Shown piece after piece: positions 2,200 to 62,131 of a DNA stretch of 64,000 nt (positions are counted from its first letter, which is position 1; each line of letters starts with the position of its first letter). Origin of the DNA: a phage; the NCBI GenBank assembly GCA_036253495.1, contig GCA_036253495.1_4125.1; one strand, given 5' to 3'. Below the pieces are notes generated by a model. The model made no database searches. It was given only the letters and a program-made list of their open reading frames with translations, and was not told where the DNA came from. A program made the translations under genes and the position numbers.

Positions 2200-2232
2200 G
2201 GGCACATATTTTATTAATTATCTAAGGATAAT

Positions 2233-2934
2233 ATGATGGCAGATAAAGTTACACACTATGCAGTTGATATTGAATCTTTCGGAACTCCAGAACGTAGTGG
2301 TTATGATATTATCATTCCAAATTACGCAATTGTTTTAGTTCCAACTAACCCAATGAAAGATATCTCACGTTATGCATATGTTAAACTACCATTCCAAAAA
2401 CAAATTGATGCTGGTCTTAAAGTTGATGCAGGTTCAATGAACTTTTGGATGAATATGTGTCAAAATGATCATAAAGGTGCATATGAAGAAGTAGTTAGTA
2501 CACTCACGTTGTCAGAACCTGAGATTATTTCCGGTAGTCAAAACAATTTGTATAAAACAAAAAATGTACTTGATTTGTGGAATGCACTTCGTTATGATCT
2601 TAATGGAAATGAGAACAATATTGAAATTTGGGGTAATGGCTGTCACTTCGATTGTAGTATTCTTCAAGCAAACCATCGTAAAATGTTTGGTGTGGGCGAA
2701 TTGTGGAAATACAATGCACCACAGAATGCCCGAAGTGTTAAGAATCGCCTAACTGAAGATGAAAAATTTGACATGGATTCCATTGTTGATGTACAATTGA
2801 AAAAGTTTGTGGAGATGGTTGCTGATCATGGTCTTTATGGTCTAGAACTTCACCACCCATTATTCGATGCAGCACGTGAAGCTATCCAGGTTTCATATTG
2901 CTTAAATGCAATCAACGAACGCGGAAACTATTAA
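2233..2934 (+). CDS. DEDDh-type 3'-5' exonuclease (DnaQ-like; comparable to T4 DexA)
   Basis: Exo motifs: D-x-E in YAVDIES, FD in GNGCHFDCS, H-x4-D in HHPLFDAA; 233 aa. Confidence 0.7.
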   Translation: MMADKVTHYAVDIESFGTPERSGYDIIIPNYAIVLVPTNPMKDISRYAYVKLPFQKQIDAGLKVDAGSMNFWMNMCQNDHKGAYEEVVSTLTLSEPEIISGSQNNLYKTKNVLDLWNALRYDLNGNENNIEIWGNGCHFDCSILQANHRKMFGVGELWKYNAPQNARSVKNRLTEDEKFDMDSIVDVQLKKFVEMVADHGLYGLELHHPLFDAAREAIQVSYCLNAINERGNY

Positions 2935-2944
2935 AGGTAACACA

Positions 2945-4042
2945 ATGAACTTAGCAATTCTTCTAATACCAAGTTTGATAGTTGTTCTAATCATGAAGTT
3001 CAAATACCATACTGCCATAACAACAAAGGAATTGCTAATTCATACTGGAATTTGCTTTCTTGCAGCGGTGTTGGTATTGGGAACATCATACTTGATAAAC
3101 TACAGCCAACTTCGTGATGTTGAAATTCTAAATGGTCAGGTTACAGAGAAATACAGCCAACGTGAGAACTGCACATCACAATCAAGTTCTTGTAAACACT
3201 ATACTTGGCATGAGCGTTGCTGGACTACCTATGATTCTAAAGGTCGCTCACAACGTGAATGTGAATCTTATAAGGTATTCGACTATCCGTATGAGATTGA
3301 TTGGTACGTTAAAAGCACTGTTGGTAAGTTTGAGATTGAAAGGGTCAATAGACAAGGAACACAAACTCCACCACGCTGGCAAGAAGTGAAAATTGGTGAT
3401 TATGCAGCAGCAGAAAACACATACATAAATTATCTATTTGCAGATAAACACTCATTATTCAGTACTGAAGATTTGATTTCTATGTATGATAAAGAATATC
3501 TGGAATCTTTACCTGAATATCCAAGTATTAGTGATTATTATAAAACACACCACGTTATTAATAAAACTGATTACGATGTGAGTGGGTATGATGAATATTT
3601 ACGTGAAGTGTTAAAAACATTAGGTGCACAAAAGCAAGTAAACATTCAAGTACTAGTATATGATTATCATGACGTGAATTTTGTTGATGCAGTAACCTCA
3701 ATCTGGCGTGGTGGCAAGAAGAACGATGTTATTATGTTCTTTGGTATCAGTAATGATGGTGTCGTTAAATCATTCAATAGTACGTCATTCGCTAAAGGTA
3801 TGAATAATGAAGAATTGCATTCTAAAATGCGAATGGATGCGTTAAATGAAGTATTAACACTTGACTTACTTAAAGTTCAGGTTCATAATATACAGACTAA
3901 GTTTGAACGTCTGTCTAATAAAGAGTTTGAATACATGGCAGTTAAAATGGAACCACGAAAAGATGTTATGATTGCTGCATCGTTGATTCTCATTGTACTG
4001 TCGATTGTTGTTGGTCTTTATATGAAGGAAAATAATGTATGA
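2945..4042 (+). CDS. membrane protein (hydrophobic helices at both termini)
   Basis: ORF from ATG 2945 with AAAGG RBS; N- and C-terminal hydrophobic segments. Confidence 0.55.
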   Translation: MNLAILLIPSLIVVLIMKFKYHTAITTKELLIHTGICFLAAVLVLGTSYLINYSQLRDVEILNGQVTEKYSQRENCTSQSSSCKHYTWHERCWTTYDSKGRSQRECESYKVFDYPYEIDWYVKSTVGKFEIERVNRQGTQTPPRWQEVKIGDYAAAENTYINYLFADKHSLFSTEDLISMYDKEYLESLPEYPSISDYYKTHHVINKTDYDVSGYDEYLREVLKTLGAQKQVNIQVLVYDYHDVNFVDAVTSIWRGGKKNDVIMFFGISNDGVVKSFNSTSFAKGMNNEELHSKMRMDALNEVLTLDLLKVQVHNIQTKFERLSNKEFEYMAVKMEPRKDVMIAASLILIVLSIVVGLYMKENNV

Positions 4043-4593
4043 ATAAGCCTCTGATTTTGTTGGTTGGTGTGTTGGTGATTTTTGTTATTGGTGTGTTTGC
4101 AACTGTAAGTATGTATAGTTCAGCACATGATAGTGCAGTGAATTTTGAAGGTAATATTAAAAAGTACTACGATGCATCTGAAAGTCAACTGAGCAGTTAT
4201 ACACTAACTATTCAAGAAAAGGTTCAAGTATCGGACAAATATAAGGATGCATTGAAAGAGACAATCGAAGCGTACTTTAAGGGACGTGAAGGAGTTGATC
4301 AGAAATTTGTAATGTCACAGATTCAACAGCAAGTTCCAAATCTTGATCCTAAGATTTATCAAGAGTTGATGGTTACAATTGATGCAGGGCGTGAGAAGTT
4401 CAATAACTTGCAGAAAATGAAAATTGAACAATGTACTGATTATGAGAAATTCCGCAAAGGATTCTGGAACTCCAAAATCATCGATTCTAATACATTCCCA
4501 AGTAAAGATATTGAACATTTGTGTACTGTCGTTTCTGATACTCGCACTAAGAAAGCAATGGAAACTGGTATTCAGGAAGTAATTAAATTGTAA
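4039..4593 (+). CDS. membrane-anchored hypothetical protein
   Basis: ATGA start/stop overlap with upstream gene; N-terminal TM helix; LemA-like only a weak impression. Confidence 0.55.
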   Translation: MNKPLILLVGVLVIFVIGVFATVSMYSSAHDSAVNFEGNIKKYYDASESQLSSYTLTIQEKVQVSDKYKDALKETIEAYFKGREGVDQKFVMSQIQQQVPNLDPKIYQELMVTIDAGREKFNNLQKMKIEQCTDYEKFRKGFWNSKIIDSNTFPSKDIEHLCTVVSDTRTKKAMETGIQEVIKL

Positions 4594-4600
4594 GTATTTG

Positions 4601-4627
4601 GGGAGTACATTATTGTACTCCCTTTTT
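4601..4627 (+). terminator. intrinsic terminator hairpin GGGAGTACA-TTAT-TGTACTCCC plus T-run
   Basis: Perfect 9-bp stem 4601-4609/4614-4622 followed by TTTTT. Confidence 0.6.
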
Positions 4628-4644
4628 AATAGGATATATAAACT

Positions 4645-5226
4645 ATGTTTTATAATGAAACTCTTAAGTTGTTCGAGCGTATAGCAGAAATCAAAAAGCG
4701 TGCATATGATAATATAATTCTTCCTTATAGTTTTGAATCAGATACTATAATTTTTAAAATGAAACATCATGCTCGTCATTATGAATTTATTTTAGGGATA
4801 AAAGAACCTAAAATTGAATCCAATGTTCCAAATATATCATCATCTATCGCAGTTCCAAGCGGTGTAAATATTACCCACGGTCATCCAATGACAATTGCGG
4901 CAACTTCATCCAATACGATTATTGAGCGTTATATTAAAGTTTGTACAACAACAGCTATGCAAAATATCATATCAGTTGAGTGGAGTGAACTACCAAGTAA
5001 GTTCATTTACTTCACCAATAGTAATGGTACAACGCCTGAGAAAGAATATATGGGTAATAAGATTATGTCAGCTATGATTCTACATGAAAAAACGCTTATC
5101 AATGGTGAAATATATTCATTAGAAGACAATCCAGATGCATTTATTAAAGACATTGAGGGTTCCAATAAATTTAGTATTTTAGAAGTATTAAATCTTGAAA
5201 AGGATTATAAACATGCAATACGATAA
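4645..5226 (+). CDS. hypothetical protein
   Basis: ORF with ATG 4645 downstream of terminator. Confidence 0.5.
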   Translation: MFYNETLKLFERIAEIKKRAYDNIILPYSFESDTIIFKMKHHARHYEFILGIKEPKIESNVPNISSSIAVPSGVNITHGHPMTIAATSSNTIIERYIKVCTTTAMQNIISVEWSELPSKFIYFTNSNGTTPEKEYMGNKIMSAMILHEKTLINGEIYSLEDNPDAFIKDIEGSNKFSILEVLNLEKDYKHAIR

Positions 5227-13436: not shown

Positions 13437-15335
13437 ATGGAACCGATACGTGTACTATCACTATTCAATGGGATGAGTGTTGGGTATATGGCCTTGCAAA
13501 GTGCAGGAATACCAGTTGAAAAGTACTACTCATCTGAAATTGATAAATTTGCTATAGCTGAATCCCAGGCTAACTTTCCTGATATCATCCAATTGGGTGA
13601 TGTAACTAGATGGAAAGAATGGGATATCGAATGGGACAAGATAGATCTTCTGATGGGTGGTTTTCCTTGCTTCCCAGCAGGAACCATGATCATGACAAAT
13701 GAAGGTCATAAAGATATAAAAGATATAAAAATTGGTGATATGGTTCTTACACACACTGGACAATACCAAAAAGTATTGAGTATTGGTAGCAAGATTGCAC
13801 CAACAAGAATCATCACAGGTCAGGGACATATACCAATTGAATGCACTGATAATCATCCATTTTATGCGAGAAAAATGAGCAAGAAGTGGGATAATGAAAA
13901 ACGACAATATGTTCGTGAATATACAGAACCTACATGGATCGATGCACATGAACTCACAGAAGAACATGCTATATGTAATGTTCGTTGTAATGTGAATTTT
14001 CAACATAACAAGAGTGAAAGCTTTTGGTATTTCATGGGTAGATTTATGGGTGATGGATGGACTTACAAAGTAAAACGACAAAATAGAAAAAATAGTTATC
14101 AATATCGTGTTTTTATTTGCTGTGCTCATGATGAATTTGATGAATTGGTTTCATGTTTTGATGGTATGAATATGAAATATAATTTTGTTAAAGAAAGAAC
14201 ATCTTATAAATTCTATATTTGTTCAAAAGAACTAGTTGAATTTTGTGAACAAATGGGTAAGGGTGCTTCAAATAAACAAGTACACCCCACACTTTTCACT
14301 GAAAGTATCGCTAATCAGAAAGCATTCATTGATGGTTATTTTGACGCAGATGGTCACCATGACAAGAAAGATGATTGTTTAAAATTTACATCAACATCAA
14401 AGAATGTTATTCTTGGTATACAACAACTAATTATGAATGTGTATGGTCGTCATTCTAACATAACATACTTTAAACCGTCTGAAACAAAAGTTATAGAAGA
14501 ACGTGTTGTTAATCAGAAGCCGTATTACGTATTAACATACAAAAAAGAAAAGCACCGAAAAGATGAAGCATTCTATGATGATGGGTCATATTCATGGGTA
14601 AAAGGTGTTAAATCGAACACCACAACCGGAGAATGGAAAACCGTTTACAATATTGAAGTTGCAGTAGATAACACATATACGGCGAACAATATTGTAGTTC
14701 ATAACTGCCAAGCGTGGTCAGTTGCTGGGAAACAAGGCGGTGTGAATGATCCTCGTGGTATGTTATTCCATACAATGGTTGATATTTACCAGCACATAAA
14801 AAGTCTCAATCCTAACTTGAAAGTTCTTTTTGAGAATGTTAAGATGAAGGAAGATTTCAAGGATTATATCAATGGCGTGTTGGAAATGACACCAATTTTG
14901 ATAAACTCCCAGCATTACACGCCTCACTTCAGGCAACGTTACTACTGGTACAGTACTGATAAGTTATTCATACCACCTGCAATATCCAAAGCCCCAAAGC
15001 TTCAAGATATACTTGATGATGGTTGGTACACAGACAGAACCGCTTCGTACTGTATTGATGCCAATTACTTCAAGGGTGGAGATCCGAATCAGTACTTCAA
15101 TAAGTCAAGAAGACAAATCGTTTTCAAAGACCCTGATATCAACAGGAACTTCCTGATTGAGAAGGGTAAACGAAATGTGGACTATCGACATTTGACAGTG
15201 CAAGAGTGTTGCATTTTACAGGGAGTTGATGTAAACTATTTCAAAGTGTCAAGTAACACACAAGCGTACAAAATGCTTGGTAATGGCTGGACAGCACCTG
15301 TTATAGAACATTTACTTCGTGATATATTCTTTTAA
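13437..15335 (+). CDS. DNA (cytosine-5)-methyltransferase interrupted by an in-frame intein
   Basis: N-extein ends GGFP; C-extein starts CQAWSVAG (together motif IV GGFPCQ); downstream ENV (VLFENV), RQR and LGNGWTAPV motifs. Confidence 0.85.
   Translation: MEPIRVLSLFNGMSVGYMALQSAGIPVEKYYSSEIDKFAIAESQANFPDIIQLGDVTRWKEWDIEWDKIDLLMGGFPCFPAGTMIMTNEGHKDIKDIKIGDMVLTHTGQYQKVLSIGSKIAPTRIITGQGHIPIECTDNHPFYARKMSKKWDNEKRQYVREYTEPTWIDAHELTEEHAICNVRCNVNFQHNKSESFWYFMGRFMGDGWTYKVKRQNRKNSYQYRVFICCAHDEFDELVSCFDGMNMKYNFVKERTSYKFYICSKELVEFCEQMGKGASNKQVHPTLFTESIANQKAFIDGYFDADGHHDKKDDCLKFTSTSKNVILGIQQLIMNVYGRHSNITYFKPSETKVIEERVVNQKPYYVLTYKKEKHRKDEAFYDDGSYSWVKGVKSNTTTGEWKTVYNIEVAVDNTYTANNIVVHNCQAWSVAGKQGGVNDPRGMLFHTMVDIYQHIKSLNPNLKVLFENVKMKEDFKDYINGVLEMTPILINSQHYTPHFRQRYYWYSTDKLFIPPAISKAPKLQDILDDGWYTDRTASYCIDANYFKGGDPNQYFNKSRRQIVFKDPDINRNFLIEKGKRNVDYRHLTVQECCILQGVDVNYFKVSSNTQAYKMLGNGWTAPVIEHLLRDIFF
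13668..14705 (+). other. intein (346 aa) with LAGLIDADG homing-endonuclease domain, inserted before catalytic Cys of the methyltransferase
   Basis: Starts Cys (CFPAGTMIM), ends VVHN followed by +1 Cys; internal FMGRFMGDGW and FIDGYFDADGH dodecapeptide-like motifs. Confidence 0.75.
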
Positions 15336-44039: not shown

Positions 44040-44069
44040 TCACCGAATGCAGTGAAGAGGAAATCTAAA

Positions 44070-44864
44070 ATGAGTACTATCGATGAATTGATTCGACGGA
44101 ATTCAAAATATTACCAACCATCAGAAATTGTGGATAATATTACTAAATCTGAGTTTGGACCTAATACTCGCAAACTCATTCATGTAATGTCTCGTGACGG
44201 CTTTAAATGTGATTGTTGTGGTGAATCCAATGTAGTATTCACTTTACATAAGCACAGTACTAAAGAACGTTATAAATTCAGACCTTATGTACTTAAAGGG
44301 AAACGTCTTGTACGCATGACGTTAGACCATAATGTACTGGACTGTCTCCAGGGTGGTAATGATAAAGAGAACATGACTGCACTGTGTGAGGATTGTAATG
44401 CCTTACGCCAGCATAAGTTCGCAGAGTACAGCGAGTTTAAGTACTGGTATCATAATGCAGACCGTTCAATTGAGCCTAATGTAAACTACTGCTTCATTGA
44501 GTACATCAAGAATGCAAAAGATACATACATTCTTAAATCCATGTCTCCGATTACAGTGTTTCCTGAGAATCTATTCAGTACTATGGAGCGTGATTTCAAG
44601 CGTGGTATCATCAATGCATTCAAGCACTTAGACAAAGGTATCAAGCACTTTGATGTTGAATGTTTAAATTCAGGTATGAATCATTTAGTACAAATTTACA
44701 TGAAATCGTTTATAGGTATTGACAGTGCACGACTACCAGTATATAATTACTTTATTGAAAGCGTAGAAGGTGAATCACTTCGTGATTATGGTGAAAGATT
44801 TAATAAGAAAGTTTTCACTGCAATAGCAAATGAGATTCATTACTATAAACCATATGTAATTTAA
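44070..44864 (+). CDS. HNH endonuclease-like protein
   Basis: CDCCGE ... DHNVLDCLQGGNDKENMTALCEDCN pattern (Cys pairs around His/Asn). Confidence 0.55.
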   Translation: MSTIDELIRRNSKYYQPSEIVDNITKSEFGPNTRKLIHVMSRDGFKCDCCGESNVVFTLHKHSTKERYKFRPYVLKGKRLVRMTLDHNVLDCLQGGNDKENMTALCEDCNALRQHKFAEYSEFKYWYHNADRSIEPNVNYCFIEYIKNAKDTYILKSMSPITVFPENLFSTMERDFKRGIINAFKHLDKGIKHFDVECLNSGMNHLVQIYMKSFIGIDSARLPVYNYFIESVEGESLRDYGERFNKKVFTAIANEIHYYKPYVI

Positions 44865-51596: not shown

Positions 51597-51788
51597 ATGT
51601 TGATTTATCAATGTGATAACATTCGTGTTATACAGCATCCCTACTTACAAATCTTTGATGTGCAGCAGTATATGGAAGGTGATGACCCAAGAACCTATGG
51701 TCGTAAGTATGATTACTTCACTGTAAAGCAGTGTCGTAACATCAAAGAAGTACGACAATTAGTTCAAGAACTTCAAAATAAAGGTTGA
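51597..51788 (+). CDS. hypothetical protein
   Basis: ATG 51597 after GAGGACT RBS; track start 51567 is a non-ATG codon. Confidence 0.45.
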   Translation: MLIYQCDNIRVIQHPYLQIFDVQQYMEGDDPRTYGRKYDYFTVKQCRNIKEVRQLVQELQNKG

Positions 51789-51814
51789 CTTCGGTCAGCC
51801 TTTTTTGTTATAAT
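51783..51814 (+). promoter_or_regulatory. terminator-promoter composite cassette
   Basis: Hairpin GGTTGAC-TTCG-GTCAGCC plus T6; embedded TTGACT 51785-51790 and TATAAT 51809-51814. Confidence 0.65.
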
Positions 51815-56063: not shown

Positions 56064-56072
56064 TAAAAAAGA

Positions 56073-56104
56073 GGTTGACTTCGGTCAGCCTTTTTTGCTA
56101 TAAT
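56073..56104 (+). promoter_or_regulatory. terminator-promoter composite cassette
   Basis: Hairpin GGTTGAC-TTCG-GTCAGCC plus T6; TTGACT 56075-56080 and TATAAT 56099-56104. Confidence 0.65.
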
Positions 56105-58597: not shown

Positions 58598-58927
58598 ATG
58601 AAAAAACTACTAACTATTTTAGTACTATCTGCTATTACGTTGACGGCTGGATGTACCGTTAAAAAAGATTTATTCCCTGTTGGTGGAAGTAAAGCTGATG
58701 GTGTTATTAGGCTTGGATACACATTCGACCAGCGATCTGAAATTCCATTAATTGATTTGGAACAGGGATTGTATGTAGCTACTAAACGATGCCAAAAGTG
58801 GGGATATTCAGGTGCTGAAATTTTTGGTGGCTCCACAACAATGTGTTCTGACCAACGTCCACTGGGGTGTGTTGCAACAAATGTCACATATGAATATCAA
58901 TGTACTGGTGACTTAAAAGAAAAATAA
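58598..58927 (+). CDS. putative lipoprotein
   Basis: GAGGATAA RBS; signal peptide with lipobox-like LTAGC. Confidence 0.55.
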   Translation: MKKLLTILVLSAITLTAGCTVKKDLFPVGGSKADGVIRLGYTFDQRSEIPLIDLEQGLYVATKRCQKWGYSGAEIFGGSTTMCSDQRPLGCVATNVTYEYQCTGDLKEK

Positions 58928-58937
58928 TCTTTTACAT

Positions 58938-58970
58938 GGGTTGACTTCGTTCAGCCCTTTTTGCTATAAT
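58938..58970 (+). promoter_or_regulatory. terminator-promoter composite cassette
   Basis: Hairpin GGGTTGA...TCAGCCC plus T5; TTGACT 58941-58946 and TATAAT 58965-58970. Confidence 0.65.
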
Positions 58971-58998: not shown

Positions 58999-59436
58999 AT
59001 GACCCGCATTAACTTAGTACACGTTAAAGAACTTGCTGACCAACATCTGATGGCTGAATATCGTGAACTTCCACGTGTATTTGGTGCTGTACAAAAACAT
59101 GTTCAAGCACGTAAGCGTGTACGTGATTTCAAAATTAACAGTACTTATCTGTTAGGTTCAGGTCATGTAACATTCTTCTACGACAAGTTACTATACTTAC
59201 AGAAGCGTCATATTGATATTGTTAACGAATGTTTGCGTCGTGGTATGAAGATTCAAAACACTGAAGTAAACGACATTAGCGGCTTCCCTGCTGAGTTTTG
59301 TAATGACTACGTACCATCGGAGTCCGAGATTAAAACATCACGCGAGCGTTTGATTGAGAAGCTTCAGATGAAGCCTAAGTGGTATAAGTTTACTGATGTT
59401 GAGCTACCTATATATTATGTTGATATGATACAATGA
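58999..59436 (+). CDS. denV: endonuclease V (pyrimidine-dimer DNA glycosylase/AP lyase), T4 DenV homolog
   Basis: Near-identical N-terminal block MTRINL...[21 protein letters not shown] and [10 protein letters not shown] core match T4 endonuclease V as I recall it; GAGAGG RBS. Confidence 0.9.
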
Positions 59437-59666: not shown

Positions 59667-59699
59667 GGGTTGACTTCGGTCAGCCCTTTTTGCTATAAT
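59667..59699 (+). promoter_or_regulatory. terminator-promoter composite cassette
   Basis: Hairpin GGGTTGAC-TTCG-GTCAGCCC plus T5; TTGACT 59670-59675 and TATAAT 59694-59699. Confidence 0.7.
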
Positions 59700-59725: not shown

Positions 59726-59965
59726 ATGAAACTATCTTTTATACGTTTAGCAGAATTCTTCGGTACTGATATAATTACTTTACAACAAATTGCAGACAAT
59801 ACTTCATTAAGCACACAAGAAGTACTTGACTTAGATGTGATAGAGTGTGATAATACTTCTATCGATTATAAAGAAGGTCTTGTCGAAAAAGATAAGATTC
59901 AGGCTAAGATTAATGGTGCTGGACGGGTTCAGTACTGGAAAGGGGTTTTAAGTAATGCGTGTTGA
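59726..59965 (+). CDS. hypothetical protein
   Basis: GAGG RBS. Confidence 0.5.
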   Translation: MKLSFIRLAEFFGTDIITLQQIADNTSLSTQEVLDLDVIECDNTSIDYKEGLVEKDKIQAKINGAGRVQYWKGVLSNAC

Positions 59966-61289
59966 TATTAAAGTACCTTTTAAATGTGAACCACTGAAAT
60001 TTGTCCAAGATTATGAAATATCTAAAACTATCGAATTTAGTGAAACCGCTTCAAAACTTGATATTAGTAGGAAAATTTTAGGTGAAAAGTATCCAGATGT
60101 AATATGGGATGATTTCAATCCATATAATATGGAAAAAGATGAAATGTGTAAAGACGAAATTATTGGCTTTGTTCGTATGGGAGTTCAAAATCTAAAATAT
60201 TATGCATATATATGTCAAAAATGCTCGACAAATTCAAAACAAAATGGTTTAGGTATATTTTTTACATTAAAAAGATATATTAAAAATAAAATTACATGTA
60301 TGTGCTCAAAAACACCACTATATACAAATTATCAACGAACTATACAACTTCATAATAAATCTATAAGTTTAGGTTATGTGTTTATTGGATATAATAAAGA
60401 AAAACAAATAACTTCGGATGCTAAAATAAAACTAGGATGTTATAATCATGGTATGTGGGATACTATAACAATAAATTCGTATAACACCAACTCACGCGGC
60501 TGTTCAAAATGTGCTGGTGTTCATTCACCATCACAGGAAGAAGCAAATGAAAAAATAAAACAAATTTGTAATGAAAATAAATTAGTATTTCAACCTTTCC
60601 TATATAAAAATAATAAAACTAAAATTTTTGTAAGATGTTTGGTATGTAATGAATCATGGGAGTCAAACTATTTTAAACTTTATACCATGAAATATGGTTG
60701 CCAACGTTGTGTAGGAACAAAAAAGTTAACTACTGAGATTTCTACAGGAATTGTATCAGATTATTGTACAAAATATAAGTTGACTTTCATTCCATTTGTG
60801 TATGATAATAATAAGATGAAAATATCTCTACGTTGTGATATTTGTTCACATGAATGGATAACACCATTCAATGGTATTACTAATAGAATGGGGTGTCCAA
60901 GATGTAATCCAACTGAAGCAATACGTATTTCTAAAGATTTAGATCCATTAATAGATGATTTTCAGCCGGAAAAGAAATTCCTTGAACTTGGAAAGATGCG
61001 ATTTGATAGATTCAGTCAACGATTAAACATTCTGTTTGAATATGATGGGGAACAACACTTTATTTCCAATAGGGTTTGGCATTCTACTACATCTAAGTTT
61101 GAATCTTCTCGTGAACGTGACAGTATAAAAACAGAATACGCAATAAAAAATGGATATAACTTCATTCGTATTGCGTATTATGAAGACCATATTGGAGCAT
61201 TGAAATCTTTCCTTAAACTCATTGAAGAGAATCCAGGAAAGCAAATCGTACAGATCTATGGTGATGTTCAAATCTTAGACAAGAAATAA
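59955..61289 (+). CDS. putative homing-type endonuclease with tandem Zn-ribbon repeats and C-terminal Vsr/DUF559-like nuclease domain
   Basis: Repeated CxxC modules (CQKC, CSKC, CQRC, CPRC) in about 45-aa repeats; C-terminal FDRFSQRLNILFEYDGEQHF...RDSIKTEYAIKNGYNFIRIAY. Confidence 0.55.
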   Translation: MRVDIKVPFKCEPLKFVQDYEISKTIEFSETASKLDISRKILGEKYPDVIWDDFNPYNMEKDEMCKDEIIGFVRMGVQNLKYYAYICQKCSTNSKQNGLGIFFTLKRYIKNKITCMCSKTPLYTNYQRTIQLHNKSISLGYVFIGYNKEKQITSDAKIKLGCYNHGMWDTITINSYNTNSRGCSKCAGVHSPSQEEANEKIKQICNENKLVFQPFLYKNNKTKIFVRCLVCNESWESNYFKLYTMKYGCQRCVGTKKLTTEISTGIVSDYCTKYKLTFIPFVYDNNKMKISLRCDICSHEWITPFNGITNRMGCPRCNPTEAIRISKDLDPLIDDFQPEKKFLELGKMRFDRFSQRLNILFEYDGEQHFISNRVWHSTTSKFESSRERDSIKTEYAIKNGYNFIRIAYYEDHIGALKSFLKLIEENPGKQIVQIYGDVQILDKK

Positions 61290-61299
61290 CAATACAAAA

Positions 61300-61332
61300 G
61301 GGTTGACTTCGGTCAGCCCTTTTTGCTATAAT
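61300..61332 (+). promoter_or_regulatory. terminator-promoter composite cassette
   Basis: Hairpin GGGTTGAC-TTCG-GTCAGCCC plus T5; TTGACT 61303-61308 and TATAAT 61327-61332. Confidence 0.7.
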
Positions 61333-61360: not shown

Positions 61361-62131
61361 ATGACCAGAGAAGCACGCAGCATTCAAATTCAGAAAAACT
61401 TCAACTCCATGATGGTTGCTCTTGAGTGTTTGCTCGATGATAGCAGTACTGTAAAAAGTATGGTTGTCAGCGGTGCTCCTGGTGTTGGTAAGACTTACAC
61501 CCTCTCTAAACGCCTCCAGAAAGCACATGACGCGGCAGAATGGAACGTAGCTACCATCAGTGGTAAAATGACCACTCTGGCTCTGTACGAAGTTCTGTAC
61601 AAGAATCGTCATAGCACCAACGTGTTAGTACTGGATGATATGGACAGCATCTTTGATTCAGAAGACGGTATGAACCTGCTCAAAGCAGTACTGGATAGTG
61701 GCAAGCGTACTGTTTCTTATATGACTAGCTCGAAGTATCTGAGCAGCAACGGTATCCCTAACAGCTTTGATTTTAATGGTCGCATCGTATTCATTACTAA
61801 CAAAGATTTAGCACTGAATGCTAAAGCTAAAACTAAAATGTCTGCTCACTATGCTGCTCTTATGTCTCGCTCTGTATACGTTGACTTACAGATCCAGACC
61901 AAAAGCGATATCATGATTCACATTGAGAACGTGATGAACCAGACCAACATTCTGGAATCTAAGGGTATTAACAGTAATGGTAGTAAAGCAATCCTGAACT
62001 GGATGTTGAAGCACGAAGATTCACTTCGTTCACCTTCACTGCGTATGCCACTGTTGATTTCGGCAGTATATAACAACAACCCATACGATTGGGAAGAGCA
62101 ATGTGAAAACTTGTTCCTGGAGAAAAATTAA
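61361..62131 (+). CDS. P-loop NTPase (AAA-like ATPase)
   Basis: Walker A GAPGVGKT, Walker B VLVLDDMD; GC-richer codon usage (CTG, CGT, ACC) than neighbours. Confidence 0.65.
   Translation: MTREARSIQIQKNFNSMMVALECLLDDSSTVKSMVVSGAPGVGKTYTLSKRLQKAHDAAEWNVATISGKMTTLALYEVLYKNRHSTNVLVLDDMDSIFDSEDGMNLLKAVLDSGKRTVSYMTSSKYLSSNGIPNSFDFNGRIVFITNKDLALNAKAKTKMSAHYAALMSRSVYVDLQIQTKSDIMIHIENVMNQTNILESKGINSNGSKAILNWMLKHEDSLRSPSLRMPLLISAVYNNNPYDWEEQCENLFLEKN

Follow-up and report, generated by a model that had tools for sequence, protein, structure and literature searches.

A gene for a 444-amino acid (aa) protein was analyzed computationally in a 64,000-nucleotide (nt) stretch of phage DNA (contig GCA_036253495.1_4125.1; the whole stretch is termed the window). 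The window is part of the genome of an Asteriusvirus, a PBECO4/121Q-like jumbo phage of ~350 kb. The gene is probably an intact free-standing homing endonuclease gene (HEG) and represents an element type already known, in an allele that is new and so far unique. It stands free between a 79-aa open reading frame (ORF79, phrog_34150) and a gene for a 256-aa P-loop ATPase (phrog_1250), and no host gene is disrupted; a search for introns with Rfam was not made. The original prediction for this locus had also named a mobile (homing) endonuclease, an interpretation that is supported by the pattern of presence and absence among related phages and by the domain make-up of the protein.

Allelic variation at a single site

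The 444-aa allele was absent from all 50,697 deposited phage records, and the best tblastn match had 45% identity over half of the protein. An identical protein is on record once, in P0001, a 352,052-bp contig filed under Escherichia coli O157. The surroundings of the gene are highly conserved. Phage A4 is the closest deposited genome, with flanks 98.4-98.8% identical to those in the window, and the flanks of close relatives were 92-99% identical. Homology to every relative compared stopped at position 59957/8 and resumed at 61284-61297, i.e. at the ends of the ORF. The Salmonella phages SD-15_S21 and SD-6_S16 had an empty site, in which GGAGTTTTAAGTA directly abuts the downstream regulatory element, a PeSL-like hairpin-promoter element described below. 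In the alignment with SD-15_S21, window position 59955 corresponded to position 2794 of the phage locus (L003) and window position 61296 to position 2796; the segment missing there is listed in Table 1. In the empty-site phages, the reading frame of ORF79 runs on into the PeSL-like element. Comparison of presence and absence among relatives was thus positive on each count, with a unique allele, exact breaks at the ends of the ORF, and empty sites. An ORF kept in the same position in all relatives and devoid of any nuclease match is clearly not what was found.

A census of ~24 loci from isolates and metagenomes was compiled, in which BF17 was left unassigned. ORF79 lies directly 5' of every endonuclease allele in this census. 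It was confined to Asteriusvirus, of which 29 records each held a single copy. At least five unrelated endonuclease alleles occupied the site in other relatives. Vsr-type alleles were seen in the window, JP4, TH47, EJP2, vB_Ec-M-J, SHEFM2K, CRJP21, P0003, and P0006. One class related to the endonuclease family phrog_681 was present in A4, slurp01, phAPEC6, Ecwhy_1, and P0016, and a second one in PBECO4 and 121Q. The occupants in Turkey3 and WPEC5 remained unclassified, and fEgEco12 and SP27 lack the whole module of ORF79 and HEG. All classifiable occupants of the slot are endonuclease-family proteins. The phrog_681 profile spanned the full length of the proteins from A4, Ecwhy_1, PBECO4, and 121Q and also of a T5orf172-positive 259-aa ORF. 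The five short ORFs of WPEC5 were considered as a decayed copy of the window or Ecwhy_1 allele, an idea that was rejected as tblastn did not reveal similarity.

At least four allele classes, the one in the window included, start with an ATG at the identical nucleotide after ...TTAAGTA. The encoded proteins begin with MPAKLTPKQ... (A4, slurp01, and phAPEC6), MFEQYY... (PBECO4 and JP4), MCNFDV... (EJP2), and MRVDIK... (window). In SHEFM2K, CRJP21, and 121Q, the start of the allele lies 1 to 44 nt beyond this point. In E9.1, a tandem duplication of 77 bp disrupts the slurp01 allele through a frameshift. The locus appears to show alleles invading, replacing one another, decaying, and being lost at one precise site, the classic signature of the HEG life cycle. 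Exchange of one HEG class for another at a single locus is known from T4-like phages, where hef replaces mobE and segH replaces mobC (PMC2988022).

The alleles are mosaics with shuffled domains and a recombining 3' tail. The first ~19 codons of the 444-aa ORF share ~90% DNA identity with the class of Ecwhy_1 and metagenomic P0016, whose C-terminal domain differs. The DNA match covers positions 59900-60011, and the peptide MRVDIKVPFKC is common to both. Among the Vsr-type alleles, amino acid identity was 27-48% over residues 323-389 versus 79-94% over residues 390-444, with the jump at about residue 390. The 3' tail has 94% nucleotide identity and 92% synonymous-codon identity with that of JP4, and the match runs on into the downstream flank. 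Because this high identity is continuous with the flank, the tail would act as part of the right-hand homology arm. ORF79, which is 92-99% conserved among relatives, would act as the left one.

Rearrangements within alleles were also noted. The slurp01-type allele contains perfect internal direct repeats of 125 bp spaced 188-189 bp apart (~63 codons). The A4 allele is exactly 63 aa shorter than that of slurp01, a difference that would fit the loss of one repeat unit. The alleles of slurp01, A4, and E9.1 thus appear to be products of repeat copy-number change and decay through recombination between repeats. On the metagenomic contig ERR4503900_10980 (L010, positions 2911-5093), two endonuclease genes are arranged in tandem at the site. 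The first encodes a 456-aa allele with a window-type N terminus and an A4-type C terminus, and the second is a 259-aa ORF with Pfam matches to DUF723, CapR, and T5orf172.

Zinc-finger array and C-terminal nuclease domain

The protein has a bipartite layout, in which a Zn-finger array (residues 67-322) lies N-terminal of the nuclease (residues 336-410). The cysteines of the array form six CxxC pairs (beginning at C87, C183, C228, C249, C294, and C314) together with C162xxH165 and C115xC117. They belong to four Zn-binding modules with two Zn knuckles apiece and a period of ~66 aa (C162 to C228 to C294). Clear homology links modules 3 and 4 (41% identity over 56 aa, E = 6e-15). Module 2 shows a weak relationship (E = 0.017), and module 1 is a degenerate copy. 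Pfam CapR (PF21817) matched in four stretches with 54.7 bits (cut-off 24.2), and DUF4379 ("treble clef") matched with 29.3 bits (cut-off 24.5). A precomputed DUF723 annotation is on record for the identical protein of P0001. In addition, phrog_681 matched residues 67-321 alone (1e-36), i.e. the Zn array. Repeats of this type (CapR-homology, DUF723, and related Zn fingers) serve phage T5orf172 HEGs as DNA-binding domains in a beads-on-a-string arrangement, and their copy number is altered by recombination between them (PMC10448857, PMC8096241). The array is a putative sequence-reading DNA-binding domain.

Foldseek searches of the PDB with the full-length predicted structure gave tandem double-stranded RNA-binding domain (dsRBD) proteins as best matches, namely TARBP2, Loqs, DGCR8, and NF90 (E from 7e-4 to 6e-2). 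In the model, the better resolved modules 3 and 4 consist of a helix, three strands, and short helices, a dsRBD-like order. This resemblance could be an analogy or a hint at a grip on duplex nucleic acid.

The dominance of dsRBD proteins in the full-length search diluted the match of the C-terminal part to Vsr, and a domain-only model was used instead. This AlphaFold (AF2) model had a pLDDT of 92.5 and a pTM of 0.84. The top PDB match was E. coli Vsr in its free form (1vsr; TM 0.58/0.51, prob 0.87), followed by DNA-bound Vsr (1cw0; prob 0.69) and then by other restriction-endonuclease-like folds. The assignment to the Vsr fold thus rests on a predicted structure. Among predicted viral structures (BFVD), 59 matches were obtained at E ≤ 1e-3, with prob 1.00 and TMq of 0.6-0.73. 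They are annotated as DUF559 or DUF2726 proteins, as homing endonucleases (of phages of Staphylococcus, Bacillus, and Enterococcus), or as group I intron endonucleases (Pithovirus and Lactobacillus phage LpeD). Many of these matches, from phages and giant viruses, likewise are "treble clef" or "zinc-ribbon" proteins. Residues 411-444 were modeled as a conserved C-terminal extension of a helix plus β-hairpin.

Profile comparisons pointed in the same direction. The PHROG endonuclease families phrog_559 (2e-33) and phrog_9084, a "homing endonuclease" family (residues 332-417, 1e-10), matched the nuclease part of the 444-aa protein, and that of the JP4 allele likewise. With residues 325-444 as query, phmmer returned 2304 relatives at E ≤ 1e-3 among 1.84 billion cluster representatives. 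Trimmed domains of 35 relatives gave sub-threshold Pfam matches to DUF5889 (18 domains), DUF559 (13), DUF2726 (11), RAP (6), and PvuRts1I-like_N (2). We take DUF559, DUF2726, RAP, and PvuRts1I_N to be members of the Vsr-like branch of the PD-(D/E)xK superfamily and DUF5889 to be a family without assigned function. The full protein matched nothing among PDB sequences at E ≤ 10 in phmmer, and the profile of the C-terminal domain gave a weak match to AbaSI, which has a Vsr-like domain, as its sole PDB match (E = 0.056). Neither Pfam HNH nor the T5orf172 domain matched the 444-aa protein; Pfam T5orf172 was detected solely in the 259-aa tandem ORF of contig L010. As the nuclease domain models as Vsr-like, the label "HNH", which phrog_559 and several relatives in RefSeq carry, is apparently wrong.

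Conserved residues define a putative active site. In an alignment of 70 diverse relatives, D351, E362, D389, and K392 were invariant, and D364, G365, and H368 were nearly so. D351, E362, H368, and D389 were invariant in the 35-sequence domain alignment. The domain profile was also aligned by hhalign to E. coli Vsr and to a shallow Vsr-family profile. Both runs, at non-significant scores, picked the register in which D351, E362, and G365 correspond to D51, F62, and G65 of Vsr, and the run with the family profile also aligned R388-D389 with R96-D97. H368 falls within 1-2 positions of Vsr H69. The spacing of 17 between D351 and H368 equals that between D196 and H213 of I-Bth0305I. Equivalents of D51, H69, and D97 and an N-terminal DNA-binding region are features of the Vsr-like/EDxHD homing family, and an invariant Glu residue where Vsr has F62 is a hallmark of the homing branch (PMC2677866, PMC3239194). 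Motif, fold, and context, and not proven kinship with I-Bth0305I, are therefore the grounds on which the protein is assigned to the Vsr-like homing class.

Much of the original prediction for the protein held. Its coordinates, strand, and length of 444 aa were correct, and all the peptides it cited were found. The CxxC pairs are indeed present in repeats, with a period of ~66 aa and not ~45 aa as had been proposed. The proposal of a Vsr/DUF559-like C-terminal domain was right at the superfamily level, as judged from the structure matches and the profile matches of relatives. The profile search that had been suggested found CapR and DUF4379 above cut-off and no Pfam nuclease above threshold for the 444-aa protein. 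The gene had also been placed next to denV; denV is near but not adjacent, with a 75-aa and a 79-aa ORF in between.

Transcription unit, proposed mechanism, and competing explanations

The ATG of the endonuclease gene overlaps the end of ORF79 by 11 nt. A Shine-Dalgarno-like sequence, AAAGGGG (59939-59945), lies inside ORF79, 9 nt before this ATG, and reads AAAGGAG in relatives. The endonuclease gene has no promoter of its own. Upstream of ORF79, a hairpin (-16.3 kcal/mol, z = -4.5) is combined with a promoter match that scored 11/12 with a TG extension, and positions 59670-59699 are likely the σ70 promoter of the transcript of ORF79 and the endonuclease gene. A second element forms the right boundary of the variable segment; its hairpin (-17.6 kcal/mol, z = -5.8) and T-run at 61300-61324 likely terminate this transcript, and the promoter embedded in it would serve the ATPase gene. 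A bicistronic, translationally coupled early-type transcript is thus predicted.

Both elements are copies of the 33-bp sequence GGGTTGACTTCGGTCAGCCCTTTTTGCTATAAT, of which five were found on the + strand of the window versus 0 expected by chance. It combines a stable UUCG hairpin (-16 to -18 kcal/mol, z of about -4.5 to -5.8) with a T-run and a promoter close to consensus, TTGACT-18-TATAAT. Three near-identical copies align, and the copies at 59667 and 61300 bracket the pair of ORF79 and HEG. The element is similar to PeSL cassettes, by which modules are shuffled in T4-type phages (PMC2839356, PMC4122927), and its copies bracket variable gene modules of the Asteriusvirus jumbo phage. The N terminus of ORF79, ITLQQIADNTSLSTQEVLDL, looks helix-turn-helix-like by eye and had no Pfam match. 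ORF79 may hold the homing target.

The following mechanism is proposed. An early-type transcript from the promoter at 59670-59699 would carry the endonuclease gene as its second cistron and end at 61300-61324. Translation would be coupled to that of ORF79 via the 11-nt overlap and the Shine-Dalgarno-like sequence in the 3' end of ORF79. A long asymmetric DNA site would be recognized by the four CapR-type modules, which follow each other as beads on a string and would be joined by a flexible linker to the Vsr-like nuclease. The latter, possibly dimeric as I-Bth0305I, would cut DNA with Mg2+ at a center formed by D351, E362, H368, and D389, with the histidine as general base. In a mixed infection, a rival genome without the allele would be cut at or near the interval between ORF79 and the ATPase gene. 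The break would then be repaired by recombination with the HEG-bearing genome, whereby the rival would acquire the gene, with ORF79 as left homology arm and the shared 3' tail, the PeSL-like element, and the ATPase gene as right one. The empty junction may serve as target, or else a sequence close by; cleavage at a distance is frequent among free-standing HEGs (PMC2988022).

Several observations weigh against an active homing enzyme. The 444-aa protein had no Pfam nuclease match above threshold, the Foldseek E-values against Vsr were weak (0.18-0.35), and the hhalign comparisons with Vsr were not significant (Prob 0.1). I-Bth0305I was undetected by the HMMER profile and absent from the top 50 PDB matches in Foldseek. 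In the full-length predicted structure, the N-terminal 120 residues were poorly modeled. The empty site is known from the lineage of the Salmonella SD phages alone, and their assemblies bear signs of frameshift errors. The GC content of the ORF is 0.29 versus a window mean of 0.345 and 0.38-0.42 in flanking genes; this dip is real and was counted as weak support for a foreign origin, but it is modest, and the adjoining 75-aa ORF also has a GC content of 0.29. For the protein and its close relatives, the support consists of sequences and models, and the closest characterized family member is I-Bth0305I. Finally, ordinary homologous or PeSL-mediated recombination could produce the polymorphism without any cutting by the enzyme.

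This last point leads to the strongest rival, in which the gene is passive cargo of a recombination hot spot. The protein would be an inactive relic or a nuclease with another role, such as exclusion of other phages, degradation of host or competitor DNA, or initiation of recombination. Turnover of alleles would then result from recombination at conserved flanks and PeSL module shuffling and not from cuts of its own. PeSL-like repeats do flank the module of ORF79 and endonuclease gene, with five in the window, and PeSLs are documented module shufflers in T4-type phages (PMC2839356, PMC4122927). Moreover, the absence of the whole module from fEgEco12 and SP27 is what a PeSL-to-PeSL event predicts, and the 3' tail has recombined with JP4-like alleles. 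However, the left boundary of replacement is the exact start codon inside ORF79 and not a PeSL, and all classifiable occupants belong to endonuclease families, as nuclease-driven turnover predicts and random shuffling does not. The putative catalytic residues and Zn ligands are all intact, and the nuclease domain has relatives encoded in group I introns. We consider passive cargo improbable. A chance of similar, small size is given to the idea that the locus is a docking slot and not a chance hot spot. ORF79 and the endonuclease gene that follows it would then form a two-gene module with ORF79 as functional partner; it may, for example, lend specificity, exert regulation, or carry a determinant of target or immunity. 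The fixed start nucleotide, the Shine-Dalgarno sequence in ORF79, and the shared 3' tail would constitute an interface at which nuclease heads (Vsr-like, phrog_681/T5orf172-like, and others) and Zn arrays swap as cassettes.

Domestication as a DNA-binding regulator, with the array controlling transcription and a vestigial nuclease, is very unlikely. CapR of PLE is such a domesticated HEG relative and represses a phage promoter (PMC8096241), and the 444-aa gene belongs to an early-type transcription unit beside repeated promoter elements. Yet its putative catalytic residues are fully conserved, and every close relative lacks the gene or has another in its place, which is not the pattern of a regulator that has become part of phage development. 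The allele turnover and the frameshifted allele fit the life cycle of a selfish element instead. Still less credence is given to a Vsr-type mismatch repair enzyme that acts as partner of the C5-cytosine methyltransferase of the phage in a repair cluster with denV. The modeled Vsr-like fold, the Dcm-like methylase in the window, and denV ~500 bp upstream would agree with this. On the other side, Pfam Vsr (PF03852) matched neither the protein nor its 70 relatives nor the 35 trimmed domains, and the intercalating residues F67/W68 of Vsr are unmatched, being E366/Q367 in one register and a gap in the other. The invariant glutamate at the F62 position marks the homing branch (PMC2677866), mismatch repair does not need a four-module sequence-reading Zn array, and the gene is missing from every deposited relative. 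In relatives, variable ORFs stand between denV and the site, or the interval lacks denV. Since the genes in between differ freely from relative to relative, a functional link to denV was rejected, and its proximity looks incidental. A free-standing homing endonuclease remains the preferred reading of the 444-aa gene.

Neighboring features and comparison with known systems

The features of the locus and other genes of the window are compiled in Table 1. The original prediction had counted two further candidate mobile endonucleases in the window, both of which exist. One is the LAGLIDADG endonuclease domain that accompanies a Hint domain in the intein of the C5-cytosine DNA methyltransferase. 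The other is a 270-aa HNH ORF, a third candidate mobile endonuclease, which matched phrog_35175 (E = 2e-148) and had no Pfam match at E ≤ 1e-3. Paralogs of the 444-aa ORF were not found elsewhere in the window. A gene for a YecR-like lipoprotein (Pfam, 8.9e-22) lies just upstream of denV. In SD-15_S21, the denV homolog (L003, 1720-2499) encodes a 259-aa "endonuclease", of which the first 135 residues alone match denV (99%); it may be a fusion or an assembly artefact. SD-6_S16 has fragmented ORFs, which suggest frameshift errors. The ATPase gene, a conserved neighbor on the right-hand side of the site, is labeled thioredoxin, FleQ, clamp loader, or chromosome-condensation regulator in deposited relatives.

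Table 1. Positions of the endonuclease gene, its predicted parts, and surrounding features (window coordinates unless a locus is named)
Feature	Position	Strand	Remarks
Endonuclease ORF	59955..61289	+	ATG start, 444 aa plus stop
N-terminal leader, residues 1-66	59955..60152	+	fold unassigned, pLDDT < 50
Zn-finger array, residues 67-322	60153..60920	+	four CapR/DUF4379-type modules
Module 1	60153-60329	+	CxxC...CxC: C87xxC90...C115xC117
Module 2	60330-60524	+	CxxH...CxxC: C162xxH165...C183xxC186
Module 3	60525-60722	+	CxxC...CxxC: C228xxC231...C249xxC252
Module 4	60723-60920	+	CxxC...CxxC: C294xxC297...C314xxC317
Linker and putative Vsr-like catalytic core, residues 323-410	60921..61184	+	restriction-endonuclease fold; nuclease proper, 336-410
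Putative active site	D351 61005-61007; E362 61038-61040; H368 61056-61058; D389 61119-61121; K392 61128-61130	+	
D364		+	also in putative active-site set; near-invariant
3' tail, residues 390-444	61122..61286	+	common to Vsr-type alleles of the locus; includes 411-444 extension
Segment missing at empty site	59956..61295	+	~1340 bp; versus Salmonella phage SD-15_S21
ORF79	59726..59965	+	79 aa, phrog_34150
Upstream PeSL-like terminator/promoter	59667..59699	+	hairpin GGGTTGAC-TTCG-GTCAGCCC at 59667-59686, T-run
Upstream promoter (predicted)	-35 TTGACT 59670-59675; -10 TATAAT 59694-59699	+	scan 11/12 with TG extension
Downstream PeSL-like element	61300..61332	+	right boundary of variable segment
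PeSL-like copies	51782-51814, 56072-56104, 58938-58970, 59667-59699, 61300-61332	+	
P-loop ATPase gene	61361..62131	+	256 aa, phrog_1250
Repeat-bearing alleles	L005 (slurp01) 2214-4100; L001 (A4) 2518-4215; L016 (E9.1) 2371-4334		
denV	58999..59436		near 444-aa ORF
YecR-like lipoprotein gene	58598-58927	+	just upstream of denV
C5-cytosine DNA methyltransferase	13437-15335	+	interrupted by intein
HNH endonuclease ORF	44052-44864	+	270 aa, phrog_35175

We propose to annotate the protein as a Vsr-like (PD-(D/E)xK superfamily) homing endonuclease with CapR-type zinc fingers and not as "hypothetical" or "HNH endonuclease", as its relatives are. The locus represents a natural experiment, in which about two dozen near-identical phage backgrounds carry empty, broken, and at least five intact alleles. 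These share start position and 3' tail and differ in their DNA-binding arrays and even in nuclease class. They should lend themselves to studies of how HEGs of jumbo phages compete, shuffle domains, and undergo co-conversion, and modular pairs of Zn-finger array and nuclease could be drawn from them.

Among solved structures, E. coli Vsr (1VSR, 1CW0, PF03852) is the best match, and the arrangement of Asp, His, and Asp is common to both proteins. Unlike Vsr, the 444-aa protein lacks the N-terminal Vsr segment and matching intercalating residues and has Glu instead of Phe at position 62; its domain is fused to a Zn array and distributed sporadically. The Vsr-like HEGs, i.e. I-Bth0305I (PDB 3R3P), the fractured-gene HEGs, and Hef of the T4-related phage U5, which was likened by description and not by direct comparison, have the same bipartite structure of a DNA-binding part and a Vsr-fold nuclease (PMC2677866, PMC3239194, PMC2988022). 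They also share the Asp, His, and Asp residues, the invariant Glu at the F62 position, and, in I-Bth0305I, the Asp-to-His spacing of 17. Members of this family occur free-standing in phages as well and replace other HEG classes, as Hef does mobE. The window protein differs from them by its CapR/DUF4379 modules in place of the NUMOD or helix-turn-helix domains of the founders and by the additional tail of residues 411-444, and its gene lies outside introns and inteins.

The Seg and Mob endonucleases of T4, known for intronless homing and marker exclusion, are likewise free-standing between conserved genes and sporadic, with alternative HEGs per locus. They spread by gene conversion with co-conversion of flanks, a process that is presumed for the window gene. 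Seg and Mob are GIY-YIG and HNH enzymes proven experimentally, whereas the window gene is known from its sequence and from models. The same Zn modules are present in the T5orf172 (GIY-YIG-related) HEGs of ICP1, T5-like, and other phages (Barth et al. 2023, PMC10448857) and in CapR of PLE (PMC8096241). T5orf172 HEGs also undergo changes in module copy number and domain shuffling and stand free at boundaries of genetic exchange. The nuclease head of the window protein is Vsr-like in contrast to theirs, and phrog_681 "endonuclease" alleles occupy this very site in A4, slurp01, PBECO4, and 121Q. The locus extends patterns known from T4-like and ICP1-like phages and does not overturn the current understanding of these elements.

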